DNA from: Schmidtea polychroa
Lineage: Eukaryota
Reading direction: 5' to 3'
NCBI GenBank assembly: GCA_044892525.1
Contig: CM097885.1
Span: 9,674,001-9,738,000, forward strand
Length of the DNA stretch: 64,000 nt
The translations under genes and the position numbers were made by a program. The stretch's first letter is position 1, and each line of letters starts with the position of its first letter. This document shows, in pieces, positions 330 to 58,100 of this stretch. The notes under the pieces are model-generated. The model did not search any database, had not been told where the DNA came from, and worked only from the letters and a program-made list of their open reading frames with translations.

Positions 330-1330
330 CAACAAACCAACAACCAGTAACTTATGAACATGTATTAACAACCAGATACCTACAACTAGTTACTAACAAC
401 CAGTTACCTGATACCAGATACCTACAACTAGATACCTACAACTAGTTACCTGATACCAACTACTAACAACCACCTACCCATTAACTAGCTACAACCAGCT
501 AACAACTAGCTACCACCTACCAAGTACATACAACCAACATCAAACAGGTACTAAGCATTATTAACCAACTACCAAGTACTTACAACAAGTTACTAACAAC
601 CAGTTACCTGATACCAAGTACCTACAACTAGATACCACGTACTAAATAACTCTCAAACAACCAAGTACCTACAACTAATTACCAAATACCAAGTACTATC
701 AACCAGCTAACAACTAGCTACCAAGTACTCACAACCAGATAACAACTAACAACCAGATACCAAGTACTTACAACTAGTTACTAACAACTAGCTACCAACT
801 ACTAAGTACTAACAACCAACATCAACCAGGTACTAAGCATTATCAACCAAGTACTAACAACTAGATACCTAGTTACTAACAACCCGCTAACAACCAACAA
901 CTAGATACCAAGTACCAGTAAATTACGAACATGTATTAACAACCAGATACCTACAACTAGTTACTAACAACTAGTTACCTGATAGCAACCAACTAGCTAC
1001 CAACTACTAAGTACCTACAACCAACATCAACCAGGTACTAAGCATTAATTACCAACTACTAAGTACCTACAACCAACTAACAACCACCTACCAAGTACTA
1101 AGCATTATCAACCAACTACTAAGTACCTACAACCAACTAGCTACCACCTACCAAGTACTAACAACCAGTTACCAACTACTAAGCATTAATTACCTACAAC
1201 TAGTTACTAACAACTAGCTACCAAGTACATACAACCAGACACTAAACATTATCAACCAAGTACTAACAACCAAGTAACTTGCCTAGTACTAAGCACTGTC
1301 AACTAGATACCAAACACTTACAACCAGATG
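330..1330. repeat. Cryptic minisatellite of shuffled short words (ACAACTAG, TACCAAGTAC, TACTAACAAC, AACCAG); mirrored at ~11580-12500
   Basis: The same 6-10 nt words recur in varying order; G-poor on the + strand. Confidence 0.8.
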
Positions 1331-40187: not shown

Positions 40188-43100
40188 GTATTAGTATTAT
40201 TTCAGTTCTCTCATATGGATTTATAGTTATATGGCAATCTCTAGTACGGTTATATTGTTGACTGGAGTCCTGTTGTTAGGATTTAAAAATAAAATCAAGG
40301 TAAAGTTATTTTTGATTTTCAATATTTTCCTAGGTTTATCTAAATTAAAGTCATAGATCACTGAATTTTGATTTTATATTTAATTAAAAAATTTGTGAAA
40401 TTTGACACTTCTGAAATATATTTGAATAACATTGTATAGTGGTATTGCTTTTATTCTCTCTATATTTACTTCGCTGATGTTTGTATGTGACACGCAGATT
40501 TTGTGAGGCAAAATTAATCTACTTTTTCTAACCATCAAAATTTCAGATCGATCCAATCACGGAAAGTGGGTTAATTTAAAAAATATTGATATGTCAATTC
40601 TAGATTTATTTCTTTATTACAATATAAATTCTTATCTATTCATTAACTTCAGATTAAAGAGAAGACGTAATAATATCTAAGATATGTTGAGTTAAGAGAA
40701 TGAAATATAGAGTTTTAAAAACCATGTATTTTATAGTTGATTATTTGTTTAAATAATCGCGTTGTGTGAAAAATAAAATGTTTGAATTTAAATTGTTATT
40801 ATTATTTTTAGTTTTGATGCTAGATGAAAATTAATGAAATGTGATTGCAACTAACAATTAGCAATACCTGTTTGTAGATGAACTCAAAATTCCATTTTCT
40901 TTAGGAGAAAATTGAAATAAAAATTTTTTTTTTAATATTTATTTATTATTTAAAGAAATGAACTTTAGTGCGACACAGAAGATGAGTAATAAAATAATTG
41001 AATGAAGTTCCATTCTGAATTCTTTAAATACTTTCTTTTTTTCTCTTTGTACTCACTGACAAATTCTATTTACAAATATTTTACTTTGTAAACCAGTGGT
41101 TCTCAACGCGGGTTCCGCGAAAAAAATGACATTTTATCTTTAAATTTGCATTTACGATACATATCATCAAAAACCTCAATTAATTTTTTTTATAAGGTGA
41201 TTCAATAAGAAAGCCGTTACACATATATAAACATACAAATATGTGTTTTTATTGCTTGTTATTGTTGCGCGTGGTATTTTCTTTGCTTATAAGAAAGCAT
41301 TGTTTATGTTTACGACAGATTTATAGTAATTTGTGATTGGTCACCATTGTGGGCAAGTATTTTTTGTCAGTGTTCCGCGTAAAAAATTCATGTGAATGGT
41401 GTTACGCGCTTTTATATTAATTGAGAACCACTGTTGAAGACAATCGGGCTTTTTATATTATTTTTCTAATTTCGTCAGTCGTTATGTTTAGTGAATAATA
41501 AAACTTTCAAACATATCTCGACCTCACTAAATTTATTCTCAAAAATGGTACAAATATTATATAAAGTTTATCATTAAATCATTTAAAATTAATTTAATTA
41601 AATTATCTGAAATATTATCTGAGTTCTATACTCTAAAGTTATTTAATTTGTATCTTATTATCTTATTATTTAAATAAAAATTAATTAATTTATTTATTCT
41701 CAATAAGTGCCACACTCAATGGGTGTTTTACTGGTTTAAACAAACCTCCAAAAATAAATCAAAATTTGATATTTATCACTCCTTAAATTTATAGGTTTTA
41801 TAAATAATTGATTCACCCCTGTGACACTTATCTAGAATTTACTATATAAATGTTAATAAATTTTTCATTAGAAATATTTATTAAATTAATCATTTCCAGA
41901 TTGAAGAAAATCATTCATTAAATGACAGCACAGACTACAACATATTCAAATATCAACAACGGTAAGAGTCTTTTATATATTTTAAATTGATACCGTAGAG
42001 TGCCGAATAGTATACCTCCCCAAATAGTGTACCAGTGGTATACTATTTTTAAAAAAGTGCTAAATATTATATCATGGTACACTAAACCATGGTATAATAA
42101 ACCAAATAGTGTATCTGGTATAATATTTGGATTTTAAAGTAAATCAAAATTTTGGCGTTTTCCATATAGTGTACCATGGTATTAAAATCGGACCTCTACG
42201 GTTTAATTAATTGTTAATTAGTTACCAGGTACTATTTATGTCTCGTTTTCAGTATACGGAATGATAAGATAATTTAAGTGTTTTGAATATAGAATAAAAA
42301 TAAAGAATAACAGAATTCACTAATTTTCATATTAATATTTGTAAGACAATAGATTAAAACAATATATAAGGTACACGATATTTTGACACAGTCTTTATCA
42401 AGTGTGTAAAAGTGAAGAGACATACAAAGGATTGTTTTAATTTTCAATTGTTTAAATATACCAAAATCAGAATTAGAAAATATTTTTTGTTTAAATAATC
42501 TTAAAAAAGTAGTGAGGAATCTATGCACCCCAGCACCCCCACCCTAAAAAAAAACAGCGCTATTAACCCATATTTTCCACATTTATATGCTTTTTTACCC
42601 CATATTCTTCACTTTTTTTAACTTTTAAACTTTGTCCCCTATTGCCATTAACCCTTAATTTCTTCCCTTAAAAGTAAAAAAGTTCGGAATAGATGTATTT
42701 ATAGATTAGTAATTCCGAGAAAAGGTAACGGGGTGCATAGATTCCTCACTACTTGGTCTTAAGGATTTAATGTTATAAGGATTTAATGTTATAAGAATAT
42801 CAGATTACCTAATTCCTAATGATCTAGGTCGCCTGATCACCTTAAGGTTTTGAAAGTTTTAAAAATAAAAAATTTTATGAAAATAGTAAAACTGCTCTGA
42901 GGGGACAGTGGTATTTTTTTTTTTTTTTTTTTTTTTCACTGTCCCCTCAACAGTTTTTTTTGATCCGGATCATTTTTTTTTTATTTATCAACCTCTTTCG
43001 TTTATCAAATCTCTTCCAATATACAAGCTGGCCAGACTCATACATCAGAATCAATTCGATAATAGCAGCACACCTTATTATTCGCTTCTCGCTCGAATAC

Positions 43101-46100
43101 GATTTCAACGGCGTTTTAAGCGTGCTGCTCGAAAGTTCAAATGAATTCGAAAGCGAATCCGAAAGAGGTCCGAAAACAACCAAGAAATAAATGTGCAAAT
43201 TACCGGGATCGATCCGGGGGTGTTCGAAAGACAGGTGGCGATAATTACCGGTTCGCCACCATCACCCGTTTCAATATTTTTTTTTTCATATTTATGTTTA
43301 AAAAATAATTAATTAATAAAAAAATAAAATAAAATAAAATAAATAAAATAAAATATACAAGTACTTTATAAATATAAGATACCCACACTATTATTTTCAA
43401 ATTTTTAATATTATTTTATGTTGAAAAAAAACTAACCACAGTTAGGATTTGAACCGCTATCTATTTGAACCACTGTGCCGGTCTAGCCCACTGCGCCATC
43501 AAGGTTTGAATTTTTGTCATTTTTTAGACTATAAATAATCGATTCAAGTTAAAACGTTTTTGATCTTAAATTTCCAAGAGTTGCCGTTGACCAATCACCT
43601 TAAAAATTTGTACAAGTACTAAATCGAGTATGCTGATCAATATTTCGTTAAAAAAAATTTGAAAAAAAATGACCGAAATGGGATTTGAACCCATTGGTAT
43701 TGGCAATGCAGTCGAGTGCTATTACCACTAAGCTATACTCAATATAAAATAAGTTGTTAATGTGTGACTATTTATTGATGAAATTAATAATTAATTATTC
43801 ATTTTCTCGACAACTACCACTCAGATCCATCTGAAAATTTAAATATATACTAAAATCAGTACGCTGAATCAGATTCCGTTGAAAAAAAAATATCGAAAAA
43901 AATTGACCAAAATCGAAAATTGAACCCGGTACTCCCGGTGATAAAATTGAAGCCTATTCCCACTCCGCTATAATGGCTTACATAATATATTTAATTAATC
44001 CTATTTTGTGTGTGTAAATTTTAATATATAAAAATGAATAATATAAATCTTAAAATTCAAGAAAAAAATAAATTAAATCTTGATTATAATAAAGAATTTA
44101 CTCATGAAATCAAGAAAAACGATGTACTTAAAATCTCCCCAACTTCAGGATCTATTGCAAACTTAAATCGTAGGGGTGATATAGTTTTTCAATCTCTTCA
44201 AACATCAAACCCTATAGATATTTGTAATGCCAAATTATATTATAAAATCGAATTAGAAATTGAAGCAAACAAAGATATAACCCTAGAAAATAATTTCTTT
44301 CCAAATTTATTCTCCAACATGAGATTAAAACTAGGATCATCAGAAATTGAAACTGTTTTGCATCCGGGAGTATATTCTACAATGTTAAATTTTATTTTGA
44401 CTGGTTGTGATTATAAAAACGAATATGGTGAATTAACAGGTTGGATTCCTGATGTTAATAAAGGGGATTTAGATAAAGATGGTTTAGATGTAAACCATGG
44501 TTACCATAAAAGAGCTGAACTTTATAAATCTAAAAAATTTGAAGGTTATTTTGAATTAAAACACTAGTTTGGATTCCTTCAAAACTATAATCGTATACTT
44601 CATAATGTTTTTATAGAATTCATCTGTAATAGAGTAGAAGGTGATAAAAGATTGTTCTATGGAGCTGTAGATACAAAAGCTAAATTAAAATTATCAACAC
44701 TTGAATTAAATATACCTGAATGGACATTAAACCCACATTCTGAGATTAAACTCCTTGAAAGATTAAATTCCAACAAGTCTATAAATGTAAATTATTTAAA
44801 TAGAATCTGTAGTGAATTTAGTATGACAGAGGGTTCAACATATTCTATAAAGGTAGCAAATTTAGCATACCGACCAAGATATATCTTGATTGGATTCAAA
44901 GAAGTAGATTCATCTTTCCAAAAAAATAACAACTTGTTTATTCAAAAGATTGGAGTTGATAATTTAAAAACAATCCAAATTCAATTAAATAGTTCTTATT
45001 ATCCAATAAATAGAATGGAATTTAATATTGAAAATAATGAAAACATATTCCCATATCTAAATTATATTGAAACATGTTATGATTTCAAAGTTGAACCGCA
45101 ATTAAGTTTAGAAGATTTCAAAAATTTATATTCTATATTTTGTATAAATGTTTCAGACCAAGATGATCGCCTAGCTATAAATAATGTTGATGTTACACTT
45201 CATGTAACAAAGGATTCTAATTTTAAAGCTAAAGTATATACATTAATATTAGAAAGAAAGAAAATAGAAATGAAATTATATGGTGGAAAGATTTCAATAA
45301 TCGAAAATGTTAGGGGAGATTCTTGATATAATCCCTGATATTTTAACATTTTAAAATGTCTCTAAATAAATATTGGAGATGTGAAAGTTGTAATTGTCAA
45401 GTTACAAGACATCATAAAGCAAGTCATTTAAAAACTAAAAAACATACAGGAGGTGATCTAATTCCACGAGCTGGAGGCGATTTGCAATCTTCAAAAACAA
45501 CATCTTCAATATTAAAACCTTTTACTACAGAAAAATATCCAGGTGAAAGACATTTATTTAAACACAACTATACTGGACCAGGAACACGTCTAGATATTAG
45601 ATTAGATGAAAATAATAATCCCAAACAAGGAGAAGAACCAATAAATAGAATTGATCAAGCAGCTTTAAAACATGACATTGCATACAATTCAACAAATCTT
45701 AGAGATAGACATGTTGCAGATGTGAATTTAATACATGATTTAAATAGTATCCAAAATCCATCAACCCAAGAAAAGATTCAAAGAGCTCTAGTTAAATTAG
45801 CAATGAAAGGTAAGATTTTCATAGGCTTAGGACACAGTCCGATCACCATGGGTGCAAGACTTCCTAGGAAAGCAAAAGATGTTGCTTATAAAAAGATTAT
45901 CGAACAAGCAGAGATTGAAAGATCCCTCGAGAGTACAGCCAAGACTAGTTTACAAACCCCAACAGAATCAGAAATAAAATATGCAAAGGAATTACACCAT
46001 GAATTTAGAAAAAATAAAAAATATTTAAAAGTTCAAGTACATGAAAAAGATCAAACATGGTCTGCAGATTTAGTCTTTATGCCCAAATCATCAGACCCTG

Positions 46101-49100
46101 AAAAATATAAAATAATTTTAACTGTAATAGATTTATATACAAGATTTGCTTTTGCAAGATGTTTAGAAAATAAAACAGGATATTCTATTACAGAAGCATT
46201 TGAAAATATATTTGAAGAAAATCAAAGAATCCCAAAATATTTATGGTGTGATAAAGGAACAGAATTTTATAACAAAGTTTTTACAAAGTTTTTAAATGAA
46301 AATGATATTAAATTATATTCAACAGAAAACGAAGGAAAAGCAGTCGTAGTTGAAAGATTAAATAGAACATTAAAAAATAAAATGTGGAAATATTTTACTG
46401 CTATTGGAAAACAAAAATGGAACAATGAGTTGTTACAAAAGATTGTAAATGAATATAATAATGATGTACATAGTTCTATAAAATCAACACCTTTAAATGC
46501 TTCCATGAATCCTGAAACCATTAAAGTGGTAAATATTGTTGATACAACCCCTATAAAACCAAAGTTTAAAATTGGTGACCGAGTAAGAATATTTAAATAT
46601 AAAAATAAATTTGAAAAAGGATTCACAGCAAAATGGACAAATGAAATTTTTATTATAAATAAAATACATTATACAACTCCAATAACATATAGCATCATTG
46701 ATTTAAATAATGAAAAAATATTAGGTAGATTTTATAATAATGAGTTACAGAAAACAGATTTTTAAGTCGACAAGCCCTAAAATAAACTTTTCCATATTTC
46801 AGCTTCTTCTCTATCCAAATAAATATAATTATATTTTTCTCTCCAATGATTATCAACAAACATATCAAACATATTCTTATCAGGTTCAACATTTGAAAAT
46901 AAATCATTATAAATCATATTCTTATCACGGCGATCTAATTTAAAAAATATAAAACAATTAGAATTATTTCTTATAGAGTTTTTATCTAAAGCATAATAAG
47001 TTTGAGATATATAAATAACATTACAATTATTATGTCGACCTCGTGTAAAGTAACTCTTTTGAATCTCTTGATTTTTCATATTAACAACATCATCAAATAT
47101 AACTAGATTCTTTTTATCTTTAGGAAGTAAATCACAATGTAAAACATCTTCAGGTTTATTAGAGAATAAAACTTGAATTGCCTCCTGCCCTTCTTCACAA
47201 ATATAATCATTTTTATTACTAATATCTGATTCTAAAATCTTTTCCTTATACCAATCAACCATATCACAAGGTTGAAAAACTTCTTCAGGACACCTATGTT
47301 GATTTTTAAAAATATCAATTATTGCTTTTTTAGTTAATTTATTTTCAAATCCACATTTCAAAAGTTGTAATTCTGGTTGATTTATGGTTGTAGAATAAAA
47401 GATTAAATTATTATAATCTAAAAAATCATCTTCAAGTAACATTCTCAAAACAAGTACATTCTTTCCACATCCAGAAGAACCAACAATTAATAATCTAAAA
47501 TTATCAGGAAATACTTTATTATTGAATTTACTCTTATGTCTATTTAAAATTGGTTTCCAAATTATTGGACTTCGTACATCCATTTTGTTTATTATAAAAT
47601 GACCTCGAAGAGTTCCTCTACTGAAGAATCTTTGCAAGAATTAATAAATTCAAATAAAAGTAAATCAGTAGTAATTGATGGTAAAAAATATTTTATTGGA
47701 AAACATGTAAAAGAACAAGTTAGAGCGAAGCTCCACGAAGCTAAAGAAGGTGGCATTCTTCCATTAGCTGCTTTAATACCTGCAATCATTGCTGGTTTAT
47801 CAGGTGCTGCTGGAATAGCTGGAGGAATTGCAACTACAGTTCAAAAAGCTAAAGAATCTCAAAAGACAGACCTAGAAAAAGAAAAACTACAAACTGAAAT
47901 CGATTCAATGAAGAAGGTAGGGCAAGCTAAAGGGGGAGTGTCCGTTGGAAAGGGTCTCTATCTTAATCCATATGAGGGGAGTCGGCAAAAGTCTCAGGGC
48001 AAAGGTCTCTATCTTGATCCTTATAAAGGTAGAGGTTTAAATGATTTTTTAAAAAATCAAATTTCTACATCTGAATCTTTATCTTCAAAAGATAAAGAAG
48101 ATTTAAAAAAAATATGTAAATCTTTAAAGAATGGATGCCTTTGTAAAACTAAAAATGGTAAAGGATTATACTTGAAGCCCTTTCCAACGGATCCTTTACC
48201 AAAATGATACCATTTTTAATACCATAAAAATGGTATATGAAGAAAGATTAGCACTTTTAAAAAAATTACAATCAGAACAAGATAAATATAATAAAAAAGA
48301 TACAAGTCAACATGCTGAATCTATAATATTAAATGAGGTAATAACACAACAACAGGGGCCAACAATTAAAGCTATAAAAGGATTAAATGAGCAAGCAAAA
48401 TTTAAAGAGTTAGAAGATGGAGGAAGTCCCCATGAACAAAAAATAAAAAAACTAGAGTGGAAGAAAGAATCCAGTGAAAGTCATCCTGAAAGAAATCAAA
48501 GAAAACGCAGAAGAATTTCTAATGCGGAAGAAGAAGAAGAAATGTTTTTAAAAACAAAACCTCTTAAAGTTGATCCTAAAATTAGAGATGATTTACCTCC
48601 TTCAATTAGACCCACATTTAATACTAATACTGAAGGATATCAAATAATAACAATTAATAAACAAAACTTTACTTTATATTCAAATTCAGAAAATAAATCA
48701 CGTATTCATTCACAAAATGTTTATAATAATGAATATTTAGACTTTGAATTTACAGATGATTTTTATAGATTACTTTGTGGATATTCTTCAGATGATGTTG
48801 ATGAAATTAAAAAATATTTAAATTTAATAAGATTAATAAGAGCTAGTTCTAAAGCAAAATATATTCAAGATTTAAAGAATTATTTAGATAAAAATGAAAA
48901 GGGTTATGTTGTTACAGAGGGAGAGGGATTAATTAGTGAAGGAAATCCCATCAATCTTTTTATTGAATTAAGAAAACTATTAGCTGCAAGGAAAGCAGGA
49001 CATAATAATTTAGATTCTGATATTTTAAAGATTTCTAAAGATTTGTTAAAACAAGGAATAATTTCAAAAGATAAATTTAATAAGTATACGAAGTTTTAAA

Positions 49101-52100: not shown

Positions 52101-55100
52101 AAATTAAATATCGTTGAAAGCCAACCTATGAATCATTAATTTATGATCTTTAAATTCTTTATCACTTAGACCTTTTATATATTCAGGATCAGTATTAAAA
52201 TATTTAAGTTCTAAACATATAGGATTATAAACTTGAGAATATAAAGGTTTCTCGATTTCTCTCTCGGGATAAATAATTTCAAGATCAGTAATCTTTGTAT
52301 CATATAACTTATTCAACTTTTCTAGATTTTTTATTATAGGGATTAAATTATTTCCAATAGGTAGAGTTGTCTTTAAATCACTTAGTATGAATCTCTTATC
52401 ATCATATTTTGATAATGATACTTTTTGAGATTCTATCAAGTGAATATCATGGTTTTCACTTTTAAGTTGATGTATTTCATCAATTTTATCTTTATGATTT
52501 GGATTCAATGTATCTATATAATCTTGATGAGAAAGATTCTTTGCCACCACTCTCTGTATTCCTTTACATCTGTTATCCTTTAAATTAGTAATATTTTTTA
52601 TAATTTCAAAAATGTTATTTTCTTGATTTTTAGTTTCCATCATTTTATAGTGTTAAAATTCTAATTCTTAGACCAGTCGTAATTGATTTATAATTATTTC
52701 TGCAGTAATGCTTTTTAACATTAATTTATGTGATTTAAAGTCTTCTGGTGTTAGTCCTTGGATATATTCAGGATCAGTATTAAAATATTTAAGTTCTATA
52801 GGTTTTATATTTTGAACTTGATTATATAAAGGTTTAGGAATTAATATTTCAGGATATTGGATTTCTACTTTAGCAAGTTGAAGGTCTGTAATCTCTAGGT
52901 TATAAATTTCATTTATTTTATCAAGATTTTTTATTATAGGGATTAAATCATTTCCAATAGGTAATGTTGTCTTCAAGTCAGAAAGTATAAATCTTTTATC
53001 ATCATAATTTGTTATAGCAATCTTGTTACACTCTTCAAGATATATATTATGTTTCTCTGATTTAAGATGATGGGTTTTAGCAATTTTATTTTTATAATTT
53101 ATATTTAATGAATCTTTATACTCTTGATGTGTGAAGGTTTTTGACACTGATTTTTGAATTCCTTTACTTTTATTTTCTTTATAGCTTTTCGGGTTTTCAG
53201 GGAATGAAGGATATTCAAATGTGTGATCTATTTCAACAGATCCTTCTATTATAAATTTTATTGTATGCTCTTTCATAATTGGTTTGTCTTTCATTTCAAG
53301 AGAATATTGTTTAGGTCTAATAAACACTCCTCCACTTATTAGTGTATTTGGTTTTTCATCTTTAAAAGTAAATAATTCTCCAGAGTTGTTTATTAATTTA
53401 TTTAAGGTTTCGTTTTCACTTATTTCCTTTTTTAAATCTTTACTATGACCTTTTAAAAACATACTATCAGTGTCCATAGCATGCATGGATATTCGATCTC
53501 CAAAATGGGGTACTAGAACATCATAGTAGGTCTCATACATTTGAAGCTTTGAAAGTTCTAAAATTGAAAAACCTATAAAGATTGGTTTATTATAAGTTTT
53601 TATAGAGTTTTTAATCTCTATAGCTATAAGGTTACTAGAGAATATCTCGGCATTTTTAAATGTGGGCTTTCCAATTATCCGGTTGTACCTATTAAGGTCT
53701 TTTGATGTATTGGTCAAAAGCTCTACACGTGTGTACTTGTCTATATTCTCCATGGTCTTTCCAAAGACCGCATTGTTCAGGAGTTTGTAAATCATATCAA
53801 GAAATGCATTTCCAGCTCTCTTTGCTGCATTTCTTTTCAAAATATTTCCCTCTATGAATTTTTTCATAAAAGGGGCTTGTCGAAATTTAATAATGGAATG
53901 TACTTTTTTTAAAACCATTCCATGGGAGAGATAAAACTGAAGGAGTCTATAATGACAAAGGTAATCAGTTTTATCGGTCTGATCGCATAAAAGTTTTATA
54001 CAGGGCGATCTATCCTGAGCCATCTGCCAATCTGATAGTTCTTCAGGAGAGATCTTTCTTCTTACAGGAGCAAATGGAAAATATCTAGTTCTGGATTTTA
54101 TTTCATTGGGATATTCAAGATCGCATTCTATGACATATCCAAATTGAGAATCTTTTGGTGTTTTTAGAATTTCTTGTATTAATGCCTCAGTGGGTTCTTT
54201 CCAGGTGAACTTGCCAATTGGAAGGTATTGAGTCATTACTCCCGCATATAAAGCTGTTGCATCTATATACATTATTTCAGAAGGATTAGAAAGACCTTCC
54301 ATTATTTCCTTACGATCTTCTGGGTTTGTTATTTCTACATATAGAGCATTAGGATCTTTGAAAAATTTAGGATAAAGAGTTGTAAAATTATTAGCATTTA
54401 TTTCTCTATTCCCTTGTACTGAAGAAATACCTCCTCTAATATTATGTTTATATACATTAAACATATCAAGCTCAACTAATAATTCAATAGTTTTATTTCT
54501 TACTGCTACATCTTCATCAGTCCATATGGTATATAATAATATATCCCAAGCTAGAGAGGGAGCGGTTATATAATTATAAGGTTTTAATTCAAAAGCTTTT
54601 GAAAATGTCTCGAAGCAATCAGCTAAGATATAAACATCCAAGGAAAGATACATGTCAGTATATTCTCCAAGGTTTCTACAGTTGAATAGATTCCACATTT
54701 TAACTGCACGGGAATATTCCTGATCAGAAATCCCTGATTGTGTTAAAACAGAAAAGAAATCTTCTTGGGGTGGGAGTAATTCATTATATTTTTCAAAGGA
54801 GTCTATATAATCATATGGATAGATTCCTTTTGCTAGACAGGTATTATATTCCTCTAATGGAATATTGTTTTTTAATAACACATGTTCTTTTGTATATTTA
54901 AAATCCTCAGGGTTCATAGTTTTAGCAATCCCATCCAAAGACATCCCTAAGAAATTTAACGAGTCCAAAAACTTAAAGCATCCATATTGAATGCTTTTAT
55001 ATTTTTCTTTTGTAAGTCCAATAACCTTGAAAGAGTTTTTAGCATTTGCGGCCAGATGCTTAATGAATAGGTGAATATCATAGCCAAAAAGATTGTGAAA

Positions 55101-58100
55101 TATAAATGGTATGTGTGTTGGTTTTTTACAATTGAGATTACATTTTTTATGGGCTGCTCCTCTGTAATTATTTTCTCTTTTAAAATGATCATGGTCTGCA
55201 ACCTTTGGCTCCTCATCCTCCTCCTCCTGAATATCAAACTCTTGTTTACACATCCAGCAGTGTGTTGCATTTTTATATTCTTCCTCTTGTTCTTCTGAAA
55301 AATTCATAGGAAAGTTGGATTTTAATATTATATATAATTCATGTTCTAGATTATTTAAAGTTTTAACAAAATGATCTAGAGTCTCTTTGTCAGAAGTTCC
55401 TCTAAATGAATATTCTCTAGATTCTACAAGTTCTGGATAATTACTTTTAAAAAACATTTTATAAGCAGAGGGTAATTGTTTTGTTAGTTTTACAGTATTA
55501 GTTTTTGTTCGTCTTAGTTTTACATTTATAGCTTCAAAATCACAATAAACCACTCCCAATGCTTCTAATAGATTGGAATAGTTTTTAAACCTCATATTAG
55601 CATTTTTCTTGTGTGGCATTTTTATTAAAGCAGGTTGATTCTTACAACAGAGTCTCTCATGTTTAATAGCAGCAAGTTTTGAACTTGAATGATATAAACA
55701 TCTTTAACAACATATGCCTCCACGAATGAGTGTGTTTCCTTTCATAAAACTTTGAAAATTCTTTATTAAGATATAATGAAGTTTTTTATCTAACATACTG
55801 CTTTCTGCTTCTGGTTCTAATGAAATGCCTTCTTCTGCTTCTCTCCTCGGGTGAACGCTTTGAACCTCTTCACCATATTCTTCTCCATCAAAGTCTTCAT
55901 CTGGTTTACCTTCTTCTAATATTAAAAGATCTACTTCTCTCTTTTCATCTGAGATTTCCATGTTAGAAATGTAAATAGGAATAATGTGTTTATAATTTTT
56001 ATTTTTTCTAGTTTTTGTAATTTTGGTTGGAATGAATTGATAAATATTAATTTTAAGATTATTTAATTTTTCAAATGCTGGAACATCTTCAATTTTCATT
56101 GGGTGGGAAAAATCTTTTGGATAAATTAATTCAGATTCATATTCTTCATATTTTTGAACTCTCTGTGGGTTAGTTGCTTGAGGATGTAAGTGTGCAAGTA
56201 TTGACCATTGAAAACATTTATTATCTTTATTCTGTACATTTATAACATGGTTGGAGGTGAATGGTGTGTGAATAAAAGATTTAGGATTTGGTGGTGCGCC
56301 TCTCCAGTATTCAATCTCTATATTTTGAAAAGAGTGGAATCTTAAATTAGATTCTCCTAGTTCTTGTTCCACCTGTTCTTGTTTTTCTTCCAATTCTTTA
56401 GCTATATCATTAACAAGTTTATTTCCTGCTTTTGTAGAAAATAAATATTTATATGAGGTTTCAATTTTTACATCTAGAGGCATTGCGATCGAATCATCTC
56501 CTCTCCAGTATTTTGCATTTCCTGTAAATTTAACTTTTATAACATTAAATCTTGATCTACCAAATTTTTTTATAGCATCATCCATTGATGATATTATTTT
56601 TTTTTTATTTTCTCTTATATATTGCATGATTGATCTGGGTCCTCGTTTTACTTCTGCAATTACATCGGTGTGATTGAAGTCATCCCAATTAAACTCTAGT
56701 TTTTCAGCTTTTTCAGTCATTGAGTTTGAATCAGAATCTTTTGCTTCAAGACCACAATCTTCTATGTGTCTTAAGTAAAAAGATTTTATCCTCATCGTTT
56801 TTCCACATGCTGAACATTCGAATATTTCTCTGTTTTTAGGAACTCCAATACAATTTTTAAAATGCTTCTTATAACCTGAAAATAAATATCTATCCTTACA
56901 TTTAGTACAGATTTTGGAATTAGTGTCATCTAGTGTGTTAGCTTTTATTAAATGGTCTTTTGATTTTTTATGAGATGTTAAAGCAGTTTTATTTTTAAAA
57001 TTTTTTTCACAAATTTCACAATTGAAAATAGCTTCCATTTTTAAAAGAATCTTTTGGTTGGATACGATGTTTTGGTTTTGATATTAATTTTTATTTTTTT
57101 TAAATCTAAAAGTGATCAGGCGACCTAGATCATTATGAATTAGGTAATCTGATATTCTTATAACATTAAATGCTTATAACATTAAATCCTTAAGACCAAG
57201 TAGTGAGGAATCTATGCACCCCGTTACCTTTTCTCGGAATTACTAATCTATAAATACATCTATTCCGAACTTTTTTACTTTTAAGGGAAGAAATTAAGGG
57301 TTAATGGCAATAGGGGACAAAGTTTAAAAGTTAAAAAAAGTGAAGAATATGGGGTAAAAAAGCATATAAATGTGGAAAATATGGGTTAATAGCGCTGTTT
57401 TTTTTTAGGGTGGGGGTGCTGGGGTGCATAGATTCCTCACTACTTAAAAATTATGCCCTCAAATCGTCTGGTCCACTGTCAAATCAGTTATCTCGCAAGG
57501 GGATAGTGGATTACAAAAAATTTGAAAATGTCATTTTTATTATAGTCATATTTTGTATTGAAAATCCCAGGTTCAATCGAGACCCCTCTTTATAGTCAGA
57601 AATCATTGGCTTTTTTAGCGAGAGTCTAATTTTGTATTGAAAATCCCAGACAAATAAACGTAGGTCTTTGCAGCAATTACGTAGCCGTTAAGCAAAAAAA
57701 ATGGTGCAGCAATGTCCTTTCTATCGAGGGAGGGTAAACCGGATGGTCGTGCTGCCATGGGCTACTAACTATCTACTTTCCAAAGCTACCTGCATACACA
57801 TAAATAGAAATAAATTAGTTTTTATTCTGACAACTATTGTTACAAATTCTGTAAAAATCAAATGGATTGATAGATCGCGCTATTACGGTCTGTATTTGCA
57901 CTGAAAATTAAGACCAAAGAAGTTTTTCTCCTTTAAGTCAACACCAGTTTTCTGTCCTAGTTGAACTTCCATTGGGACATCTATGTTACCATTTGACTTC
58001 CTATTTCACAATATTGATTTCACAATATCCTGTACAAACTTTTATACGATCAAATTTCCACTTTAAAAGAAACCTACTTAAAATGATTATGGGAGTAGTT

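Follow-up and report, generated by a model that had tools for sequence, protein, structure and literature searches.

A tRNA-derived pseudo-gene array with Pol III promoter boxes in the left arm of a Schmidtea polychroa Polinton

A Polinton/Maverick of 14.9 kb in Schmidtea polychroa carries, between its left terminal inverted repeat (TIR) and its capsid gene, three tRNA-derived units of about 80 nt on the minus strand (43424-43977), in each of which an A box is followed 43-44 nt further on by a B box and then by a T7-T8 run. Positions are those of the window, the whole 64,000-nt stretch of DNA that was analysed. Our preferred reading, held tentatively, is that this cassette is an array of tRNA-derived pseudo-genes in which two units, T1 and T2, would be competent for Pol III, and that the element may gain from TFIIIC and Pol III bound to its DNA. 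Polintons, or Mavericks, are the relatives of adenoviruses found in animal genomes.

The carrier element and the architecture of the units

We took as marks of a Polinton/Maverick the TIRs, a protein-primed PolB, an rve integrase, a double-jelly-roll (DJR) capsid protein, an A32-type ATPase and a cysteine protease. The carrier has TIRs and, in addition to the capsid match listed in Table 1, matches to PF03175 (E 2.6e-17), rve (E 5.9e-12) and Pox_A32 (E 1.2e-8); the protease match, to Peptidase_C5, is weak (17.7 bits, below the cut-off of 21.3). The family is a young, adintovirus-like Polinton/Maverick family of thousands of copies. Its major capsid protein (MCP) gene is oriented away from the units; it is split into two ORFs in the window copy and intact, at 428-430 aa, in 28 of the 30 copies examined. 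Alignments of 29 other copies to the window start at 42500-42508 in 25 cases and at 42844 or 42936 in the remaining 4, and all 29 cassette-bearing copies have the units in an identical TIR-to-MCP context. The units belong to the Polinton and are not a separate SINE.

Both strands of the window were scanned for an A box (TRGCNNAGTGG, at most one mismatch), a B box (GGTTCRANNCC, at most two mismatches) and a run of at least five T, the two motifs being the consensus A-box and B-box motifs. The matches were the three units and one overlapping match that comes from a second B-box-like word in T1, about 25 nt past the A-box start and ahead of the B box proper. The same scan gave no match in 20 block shuffles of the window, in 100 kb of Polinton-rich DNA or in 78,923 nt of other Polinton DNA. 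The architecture is beyond chance. Three such units had been placed between the left TIR and the MCP gene in a preliminary description of this DNA, and their coordinates, boxes, T7-T8 runs and A-box spacing of 235 and 237 bp were all reproduced. The flanks of T2 and T3 are homologous, as had been claimed (73% over 93-94 nt, E about 1e-9 to 1e-10), and the flank of T1 shows a weak likeness to the other unit flanks. TATA-like elements reported upstream of T1 and T2 are present but carry no weight, because the surrounding DNA is about 27% G+C; the stretch upstream of T1 is the least conserved part across subfamilies. By direct reading, the unit bodies are much higher in G+C than their surroundings.

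Table 1. Features of the Polinton left arm, with the right TIR. Distances within units run from the A-box start to the B box and from the B box to the T run.
Feature	Position	Strand	Description
Left TIR	42507..42868		362-nt arm, 97% complementary to 57084-57445
Non-coding TIR-proximal arm	42869..43423		hairpin with A23 loop at ~42895-42957; run of TTTCG words at ~43100-43260
Unit T1 (copy 1 of the preliminary description)	43424..43505	-	A box 43498-43488 (TGGCGCAGTGG); 43 nt to B box 43455-43445 (GGTTCAAATCC); 13 nt to T8 43431-43424
T2-T1 spacer	43506..43661	-	38-mer found 1,151 times in the assembly (exact word); 238-nt insert here in sister copies
Unit T2 (copy 2)	43662..43742	-	A box 43735-43725 (TAGCTTAGTGG); GCA at the anticodon place; perfect T arm; 44 nt to B box 43691-43681 (GGTTCAAATCC); 11 nt to T8 43669-43662
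T3-T2 spacer	43743..43895	-	homologue of the T2-T1 spacer; also serves as the spacer of T2 tandem arrays
Unit T3 (copy 3)	43896..43977	-	A box 43970-43960 (TAGCGGAGTGG); 44 nt to decayed, degenerate B box 43926-43916 (GGTTCAATTTT; 7/9 constrained positions); 13 nt to T7 43902-43896
DJR MCP gene	44034..45326	+	PF21738, E 1.5e-10
Right TIR	57084..57445		pairs with the left arm

Origin of the units and their variation among copies

The units derive from tRNA genes, as judged from their sequence. T2 scores 26.7 bits against the Rfam tRNA model at 43670-43740, below the gathering score of 29, and a sister T2 in another copy of the element (L051) scores 32.4 bits, above it, with the broken anticodon stem retained. 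The 5' half of T2 is 87.5% identical over 32 nt to a host tRNA-Cys-GCA gene (E 2.5e-6). These values agree with the earlier account of T2 as the 5' half of tRNA-Cys up to the GCA with a perfect T arm and broken stems, and by its sequence T2 is a chimera, with a 5' half from host tRNA-Cys-GCA and a 3' end, terminator and spacer common to the other units. Pseudo-tRNA matches had been expected from a covariance search; T2 provided one, but T1 and T3 had no Rfam match at E up to 10. A possible resemblance of the 3' part of T1 to a tRNA-Trp T arm was checked with one pattern, which had a single match, not in a tRNA.

No unit is a tRNA: the anticodon and acceptor stems are broken, and T1 is without an anticodon arm. 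Rfam at gathering score finds no tRNA in the window, and ARAGORN finds none there or in 49 other copies, with a host tRNA-Cys gene detected in L093 as the positive control. The host tRNA-Cys-GCA pattern has 997 matches, mostly in tandem arrays with a 281-bp period. One such array lies on C1 at about 269.25 Mb. As the source of the T2 5' half, and as a tandem repeat of a tRNA unit plus a spacer, the host array resembles the cassette, with a period of 281 as against 235-243 bp; it differs in that its tRNA genes are intact, its terminator is weaker and its spacers are unrelated, showing no homology to the cassette spacers outside the tRNA part and the B box.

The units had been described as a diverged tandem triplication, and as a fixed arrangement this does not hold. 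With three diverged unit types and a repeat period of 235-243 bp, the copies have T1 alone, T1 twice, T3-T2-T1 or T3-(T2)n, and one copy is without any unit. T1 is present in 20 of 21 sampled copies, and 19 of 20 copies found through the MCP protein have one or more units whose boxes are intact. Where the array is simplest, just 45-46 nt separate the T1 A box from the MCP ATG; in L059, whose MCP is about 89% identical, a 181-aa ORF stands upstream in place of the units. There are smaller differences also: the A-box start is doubled in some T2 copies, AGTGGTTCAAAT of T1 is present twice in sister copies, and the A box of one array copy is mutated from AGTGG to ACTGG. Unequal crossing-over may make the array grow and shrink, and would yield the four arrangements. 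One T3-(T2)n array, in L094, has a 243-bp period and is built from the element's own T3-T2 interval. In the assembly there are 2,897 exact matches to the T2 39-mer core and 1,891 to the T3 35-mer core; the T2 count exceeds the prediction from one-per-element density, and arrays like that in L094 explain part of this excess.

This excess of T2 cores, the 243-bp tandem runs that T2 can form and the existence of the 281-bp host tRNA-Cys repeat are what an independent host SINE or satellite, inserted in the window copy, might produce. A tRNA-derived SINE consists of a tRNA-related head, a body and a tail and is dispersed independently with target-site duplications, whereas here the T run comes directly past the tRNA-like head and all sampled units lie in a Polinton left arm, in the same context in 29/29 copies found by the cassette and 19/20 found by the MCP. 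No homology links the spacers of host tRNA-Cys to those of the cassette, and the single tandem run seen is the element's own interval, so that a SINE or satellite is hardly credible.

No such unit was found at 31 metagenome loci with relatives of the MCP (24-52% identity), where gene orders around the MCP differ and the absence is not a position-for-position comparison; upstream DNA was available for L062 (3.2 kb), L063 (6 kb), L075 (2 kb), L064 (0.8 kb) and L080 (0.4 kb). Nor was one found in 100 kb of divergent Polintons from the same genome. The module is absent from the sampled relatives, and therefore Polintons in general do not need it. The best match in the host genome to the MCP relatives P0002 and P0003 (73-74% identical MCP) is the Polinton family of the window, at 75-76%, with 58-59% to P0004; a search of viral contigs for closer relatives of the MCP found none. 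A different Polinton-type element of this genome (L092) carries a fragment of a second Pol III gene, a 7SL head (Rfam RF00017, 30.4 bits, E 1.5e-4); it has no sequence in common with the cassette family except one 39-nt match at 85% identity.

Box conservation and competence for Pol III

An alignment of T1, T2 and T3 is invariant at 21 of the 25 constrained columns of boxes and terminators and at 15 of the 57 remaining body columns (Fisher p 1.7e-6). Compared in pairs, the units are 84-92% identical in the boxes, and identity falls to 41-55% over the remaining body and 37-53% over the spacers. The boxes are thus conserved and the middles diverged, as previously proposed, but this is due in part to a patchwork of different tRNA genes, since the 5' half of T2 is host tRNA-Cys; repeated copying of segments from different host tRNA genes could, to go by the sequences, give box conservation without selection. 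Across 18 distinct T1 variants, variation affects 4 of 30 box columns and 21 of 53 others (p 0.014, or p 0.07 under a stricter box definition), and the A box has no mismatch in 37 of the 38 units found. Across subfamilies T1 is no better kept than its flanks: mean column identity is 0.85 for T1 and 0.85 for the flank 43001-43266, in a profile that included L059, a non-homologous row that depresses every value equally. The non-coding arm next to the TIR is conserved across subfamilies about as well as T1. Conservation among copies has little power, because the family is very young (copies 96-99% alike).

These results bear on a quite possible alternative, in which the units are neutral passengers, fragments of host tRNA genes recombined into a non-essential leader and there tolerated, decaying and reshuffled, with any Pol III activity incidental. 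The number and type of units vary among young copies, one of which has none and another of which has the mutated A box; T3 combines a decayed B box with three internal T4 runs; the module is missing from every sampled relative; T1 is conserved across subfamilies no more than its flanks; about 1,000 host tRNA-Cys copies are at hand as recombination partners; and the 7SL head shows a Pol III gene fragment in another Polinton-type element. Passengers would be less expected to keep box and terminator positions far better than the rest of the units (p 1.7e-6), which has diverged as much as the spacers, or to show T1 variation that avoids the boxes at the p values above. At least one unit with intact boxes persists in 19 of the 20 MCP-sampled copies, and the unit bodies are much richer in G+C than their ~27% surroundings.

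We took as the requirements of a type-2 Pol III gene an A box near +8, a B box about 30-60 nt downstream, a T-run terminator and no internal T4, with textbook consensus motifs. T1 and T2 have all of these: no A-box mismatch, 0-1 B-box mismatches, an A-to-B distance of 42-44 nt and a T7-T15 run, with bodies of 73-75 nt (T1) and 73 nt (T2) that are free of internal T4 in 18/18 distinct T1 and 3/3 distinct T2 bodies. T1 and T2 look competent for Pol III on this evidence. T3 has them only in part and is probably a dead copy, because of its three internal T4 runs and its B box at 7/9 positions.

TFIIIC binding and Pol III transcription are expected because T1 and T2 have everything that a type-2 Pol III gene needs. 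With the A box at +8, the B box 43-44 nt on and a T7-T15 run 11-13 nt later, TFIIIC would bind T1 and T2, and Pol III would transcribe them into ~80-nt RNAs that begin with a 5' triphosphate and end in oligo-U, running from the capsid gene side toward the TIR. Such RNAs would not be tRNAs and would be without a conserved fold. No run recorded as RNA contains the stretch. Contigs were compared from three runs guessed to be RNA (X1, X2 and X7) and from a further run, X3: those of the three guessed runs cover 42953-43264 and the T1 region, one of them (X7, record 26) spanning 43389-43526 at about 90% likeness, with little on T2 or T3 and no joints, and they speak neither for nor against transcription. 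A splice-leader reading of the region was set aside: by direct reading the ~70 nt leading up to the MCP ATG contain no AG, and the contigs have no joints.

Trans-acting viral small RNAs, as VA-RNA- or TMER-like decoys or as small-RNA precursors against host silencing, are improbable. T1 and T2 retain an intact type-2 promoter and strong terminators, and there are precedents in the Pol III tRNA-like RNAs of MHV68 and the canonical type-2 promoter of the adenovirus VA genes (PMC8223928). Against this, T1 and T3 fold no better than shuffles (MFE z +1.1 and +0.3; mean z 0.08 for T1 and 0.61 for T3), the acceptor-stem positions of T1 vary without compensation, and the RNA body is wholly different among T1, T2 and T3. 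Because the T run begins 11-13 nt past the B box, where the tRNA 3' end falls, the transcript has no space for a hairpin, and the pre-miRNA hairpins that follow the tRNA-like fold of a TMER in one Pol III transcript have no place in the units. In the Rfam search of the units tRNA, for T2, was the sole family matched. The VA-RNA-like decoy put forward in the preliminary description is therefore unsupported: a stable fold is missing from T1 and T3, and the VA RNA model has no match among the units.

The repeated organisation of the units, and their place just ahead of the first gene on the side of the left TIR, also recall a cis element for genome packaging or protein-primed replication, by analogy with the packaging repeats at the adenovirus left end. 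But the conserved part is exactly the Pol III box set and not another common word, the unit number ranges from 0 to at least 3, and relatives are without units, which makes such a role very improbable. Under the Pol III-competent array that we prefer, the element's gain, if any, would come from a TFIIIC/Pol III complex on the DNA beside the start of the capsid gene, through an open-chromatin or boundary effect, and not from a VA-like RNA.

Comparison with known Pol III genes and significance

VA RNAs are about 160 nt, long and highly base-paired. The cassette units share with the adenovirus VA genes a type-2 promoter of A and B boxes and a virus lineage related to Polintons, but they measure about 80 nt, T1 and T3 lack structure, and none has an Rfam VA match. 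Boundary elements of chromatin made by tDNA or TFIIIC alone ('extra TFIIIC') are known from yeast and mammals; as a working analogy, the cassette may resemble them in placing intact A and B boxes at a border, that of the terminal repeat with the first gene, with an effect that would be independent of RNA. The MHV68 TMERs, too, are tRNA-like Pol III units that cannot be aminoacylated, carry A and B boxes and lie in clusters in a DNA virus. The TMERs have a triplicated A box, where the cassette has a doubled B-box word in T1 and a doubled A-box start in some T2, and they have a tRNA-like fold with miRNA hairpins before the terminator, where the cassette has a terminator directly after a tRNA-length body and no stable fold in T1 or T3 (PMC8223928).

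The preliminary description knew of no Pol III cassette in Polintons. This needs qualifying, because published work already describes tRNA genes in polinton-like viruses, virophages and MELD viruses. Like the units, these are tRNA-type Pol III genes in elements of the Polinton/virophage realm and probably came from hosts, but they are predicted bona fide tRNAs, discussed as codon compensation (PMC12220804, PMC8502044). The cassette units, with no ARAGORN call, differ from these tRNAs in their broken anticodon and acceptor stems, the missing anticodon arm of T1, the recombining tandem array and the animal host genome.

A stronger version of the preferred reading, and a doubtful one, is that T1, found in nearly every copy with a standard left arm, is a virus-maintained Pol III/TFIIIC module, resupplied through recombination with host tRNA genes, that would shield the late (capsid) promoter from silencing or supply abundant 5'-triphosphate oligo-U RNA. 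If this were true, T1 would be the first maintained Pol III/TFIIIC module in a Polinton/adintovirus-type element, and Polintons would have in it, as a module maintained next to the capsid gene, an accessory part of a new kind. The context is how thousands of young Polinton copies evade or tolerate host silencing. Even if neutral, the cassette documents an exchange between a virus-like transposon and host tRNA gene arrays, and indicates that pseudo-tRNA tandem repeats can spread genome-wide on a DNA element.

Architecture of the units and their carrier element

We confirmed by direct reading the three tRNA-length units (T1, T2 and T3, together the cassette) that the preliminary description placed on the minus strand at 43424-43977, with their boxes and T runs present. 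Judged by the textbook consensus motifs for the A box (TRGCNNAGTGG) and the B box, all three A boxes have 0 mismatches, the B box lies 44 nt (T3 and T2) or 43 nt (T1) from the A-box start, and a terminator of 7-8 T begins 11-13 nt after each B box, a layout that is tRNA-gene geometry with a terminator at the 3' end. A scan for A box, B box and T run over both strands of the 64-kb window returned only these units plus one overlapping match, which arises because a second B-box-like word sits within T1. The same three-part architecture was absent from all 20 shuffled versions of the window and from another 100 kb of Polinton-rich DNA from the same genome.

The carrier is a 14.9-kb Polinton/Maverick with terminal inverted repeats (TIRs) that are 97% complementary, and its TIRs and gene content agree with the earlier placement of the cassette inside a Polinton, between the left TIR and the gene for the major capsid protein (MCP); the units point away from that gene. 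The capsid ORF is uninterrupted, at 428-430 aa, in 28 of 30 copies, and the family is therefore very young. The TIRs also contain short tandem words (TAAGGATTTAATGTTATAAG).

Features of the window copy of the element
Feature	Position	Strand	Details
Left TIR	42507-42868		362 nt; 25-nt perfect inverted repeat 42507-42531/42730-42754, arms 198 nt apart
Hairpin just inside left TIR	42895-42957		perfect-looking; arms ~18 nt, loop a 23-nt A/T run; weak miRNA-like Rfam matches only
Non-coding block	~42953-43264		higher G+C, repeated TTTCG words; kept across subfamilies
T1	43505-43424	minus	A box TGGCGCAGTGG at 43498; B box GGTTCAAATCC
T2	43742-43662	minus	A box TAGCTTAGTGG at 43735; B box GGTTCAAATCC
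T3	43977-43896	minus	A box TAGCGGAGTGG at 43970; B box GGTTCAATTTT
Double-jelly-roll capsid gene	44034-45326	plus	two ORFs: 44034-44567, 44823-45326
rve integrase with N-terminal PLA2-like domain	45356-46765	plus	PF08398 E 4.4e-9; rve core E 5.9e-12; fused domain parvovirus-type phospholipase A2-like
179-aa ORF	52104-52643	minus	diverged duplicate of C-terminal part (52668-53174) of adjoining PolB gene; 72-73% DNA identity over ~450 nt
A32-type ATPase
Adenain/Ulp1-like protease			weak match
Protein-primed PolB
Right TIR	57084-57445		362 nt; 25-nt perfect inverted repeat 57198-57222/57421-57445, arms 198 nt apart

In three sequencing runs whose identity as RNA is only a guess, contigs over the non-coding block are much deeper than those over the genes; the block could serve as a leader or promoter or encode another RNA.

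tRNA origin and predicted Pol III competence

ARAGORN called no tRNA in the window and Rfam gave no match there at gathering scores. Pseudo-tRNA matches had been expected from such searches, and this was borne out for T2 only, which the Rfam tRNA model matched under relaxed thresholds at 26.7 bits (gathering score 29); the T2 of sister copy L051 reaches 32.4 bits owing to better pairing of its 5' flank. The host genome holds 997 matches to a tRNA-Cys-GCA pattern, most of them repeated in tandem every 281 bp towards one end of contig C1, and ARAGORN calls tRNA-Cys in one fetched unit of this array, a positive control for the program. The array of intact genes lies at G000:C1 ~269,250,000-269,286,000 and was sampled at 269250301-269250900 (L093). 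Over 32 nt the 5' half of T2, spanning A box to GCA, shares 87.5% identity with the host tRNA-Cys gene (E 2.5e-6); the 3' half of T2 and all cassette spacers have no relation to the host tRNA-Cys repeat, and T2 is therefore a chimera, in part host tRNA-Cys and in part of other origin. The earlier assignment of its 5' half to tRNA-Cys thus stands. T1 has no anticodon arm; a second T-arm word occupies that place, which is why AGTGGTTCAAAT is present twice in T1 of sister copies. tRNA-Trp, considered as a candidate parent of T1, failed its test.

The 18 distinct T1 bodies (73-75 nt) and 3 distinct T2 bodies (73 nt) are free of internal T4 and terminate in T7-T15, and both units keep every promoter element of a type-2 Pol III gene as well as its terminator. 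A run of T4 is able to stop Pol III, and early termination is therefore expected for T3, all three variants of which have T4 at three internal places and match the B box at 7 of 9 constrained positions. In folding comparisons T1 (z +1.1 in one test, mean 0.08 over variants) and T3 (z +0.3, mean 0.61) were no more stable than shuffled controls; T2 shows moderate structure (z -2.9 and -2.2 in two tests), mainly through its T arm.

These results bear on the earlier proposal of VA-RNA-like small RNAs. According to PMC8223928, the VA genes of adenoviruses are driven by canonical type-2 promoters, and the TMERs of MHV68 are tRNA-like Pol III units that carry hairpins. Predicted tRNA genes are also known in polinton-like viruses and virophages (558 tRNAs in one collection scan; PMC12220804, section 16) and are flagged for MELD viruses in the legend of Figure 6 of PMC8502044. 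The cassette is unlike those viral systems: its units are pseudo-tRNAs without a cloverleaf, they stand in a tandem array that recombines, part of their sequence comes from a host tRNA array, and the carrier is an animal Polinton. A trans-acting VA- or TMER-like RNA, being without any structural support, is improbable.

Variation of the array among family copies

In the 781-Mb assembly a 634-nt cassette query gave 40 scored matches at 99-100% identity from 2,481 first-look candidates. In all 29 other loci fetched through the cassette the alignment to the window begins in the TIR region and reaches the capsid gene, its start lying at window positions 42500-42508 in 25 and at 42844 or 42936 in the remaining 4. 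An independent SINE or satellite fits the data poorly, and we consider it the least probable origin.

A second sample comprised 20 loci found through the capsid protein as top matches to two foreign relatives, hence not random, to which the window was added (n=21). The window arrangement, T3-T2-T1, was present in 3 copies, T3-T2 followed by a 238-nt insert and T1 in 4, T1 alone in 9, T1 twice in 4, and zero units in 1 (L059). T1, in 20 of the 21 copies of this small non-random sample, is therefore the general unit; its A box lies 45-46 nt from the capsid ATG in five copies. L059, from a more divergent subfamily with an MCP ~89% identical, has no tRNA-like unit within 1.47 kb and instead carries, directly upstream of the capsid gene, a 181-aa ORF (770-1315, plus strand) with a zinc-finger-like CxxC...H motif. 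The insert at the T2/T1 junction occurs in L051, L053, L054 and L056 and is absent from the window copy; it lies ~500-735 from the MCP ATG (minus orientation) in L051 and holds a short lysine/glutamate-rich ORF on the unit strand, starting MDELKERMRNEL.

At a further locus (L094, G000:C1:12701-13220, 12.7 kb from the start of the contig) T2 bodies recur every 243 bp through 520 nt, each followed by a T3-type spacer, and one has a mutated A box (AGTGG to ACTGG). The array therefore changes by unequal crossing-over at homologous unit 3' ends, giving T3-(T2)n-T1, and the tandem triplication first described gives way to copies ranging from zero units through doubled T1 and T3-T2-T1 to T2 arrays. 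The T2 5' ends at this locus show a doubled A-box start (ATAGCTCTAATAGCTT...). Exact-word counts in the assembly were 2,897 for the T2 core, 1,891 for the T3 core, 791 for a T1 word covering some variants only, 1,890 for the best-kept capsid 34-mer, 1,151 for the spacer after T2, and 635 and 588 for the two T2 5' junction types; T2 arrays explain the excess of T2 cores only partly.

Conservation, relatives and possible function

Among T1, T2 and T3, 21 of 25 constrained box and terminator columns are invariant versus 15 of 57 in the other body (Fisher p 1.7e-6), and the units share 84-92% pairwise identity over the boxes, 41-55% over the remaining body and 37-53% over the spacers, so that unit bodies have diverged as far as spacers and the promoter and terminator have not. 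Variation across the 18 distinct T1 variants touches 4 of 30 box columns and 21 of 53 other columns (p 0.014, or p 0.07 under a stricter box definition), and acceptor-stem positions vary without compensation. Thirty copies selected by cassette identity gave minor-allele counts of 5 in 245 nt of units versus 39 in 309 nt of spacers. Across subfamilies T1 and its flanks are equally conserved (0.85 vs 0.85), a point against selection. Since T2 took its 5' half from a host tRNA gene, some box conservation may reflect repeated patching with tRNA genes, all of which carry these boxes, and not selection in the element. The earlier observation that boxes are kept while middles diverge holds for the columns; the tests as a whole point both ways, and the family is too young for them to have much power.

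Our tentative preference is that TFIIIC and Pol III would load on T1 and T2, and that any benefit to the element would come from the DNA-bound complex beside the start of the capsid gene; the benefit is placed there because the RNA bodies are neither fold-conserved nor alike among units. Nearly as likely, the cassette is purely a neutral passenger. A packaging or replication signal, a poor fit to the data, is very unlikely.

Capsid homologues fall at 97%, 73-74% and at most 56% identity, and this family is the closest in its own genome to the 74% and 56% relatives. The metagenome loci that encode capsid relatives (31 loci, 78,923 nt, capsid 24-52% identical) yielded neither tRNA nor A/B/T architecture, but their gene order around the capsid gene differs from that of the window element. 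The 100 kb of Polinton-rich DNA scanned above, G000:C1:330001-430000 (L031-L040), is crowded with pieces of numerous very divergent Polinton lineages, whose PolB is 27-30% and integrase 27-36% identical to that of this family, and has no A/B/T architecture either. Within this comparison the cassette is therefore lineage-specific, and a literature search, mostly of titles and abstracts, found no report of such a cassette in Polintons or Mavericks.

The safest statement is that the cassette is a recombining array of pseudo-genes that descend from tRNA genes and in part are chimeras with host sequence, and that it belongs to this Polinton family as an integral but variable component. Another Polinton-type element of the same genome contains a 7SL-RNA head (Rfam match) and has no meaningful sequence relation to this family (a single 39-nt match). 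Together with the tRNA-derived cassette, this suggests that Polinton-type elements of this genome have repeatedly picked up Pol III gene fragments.
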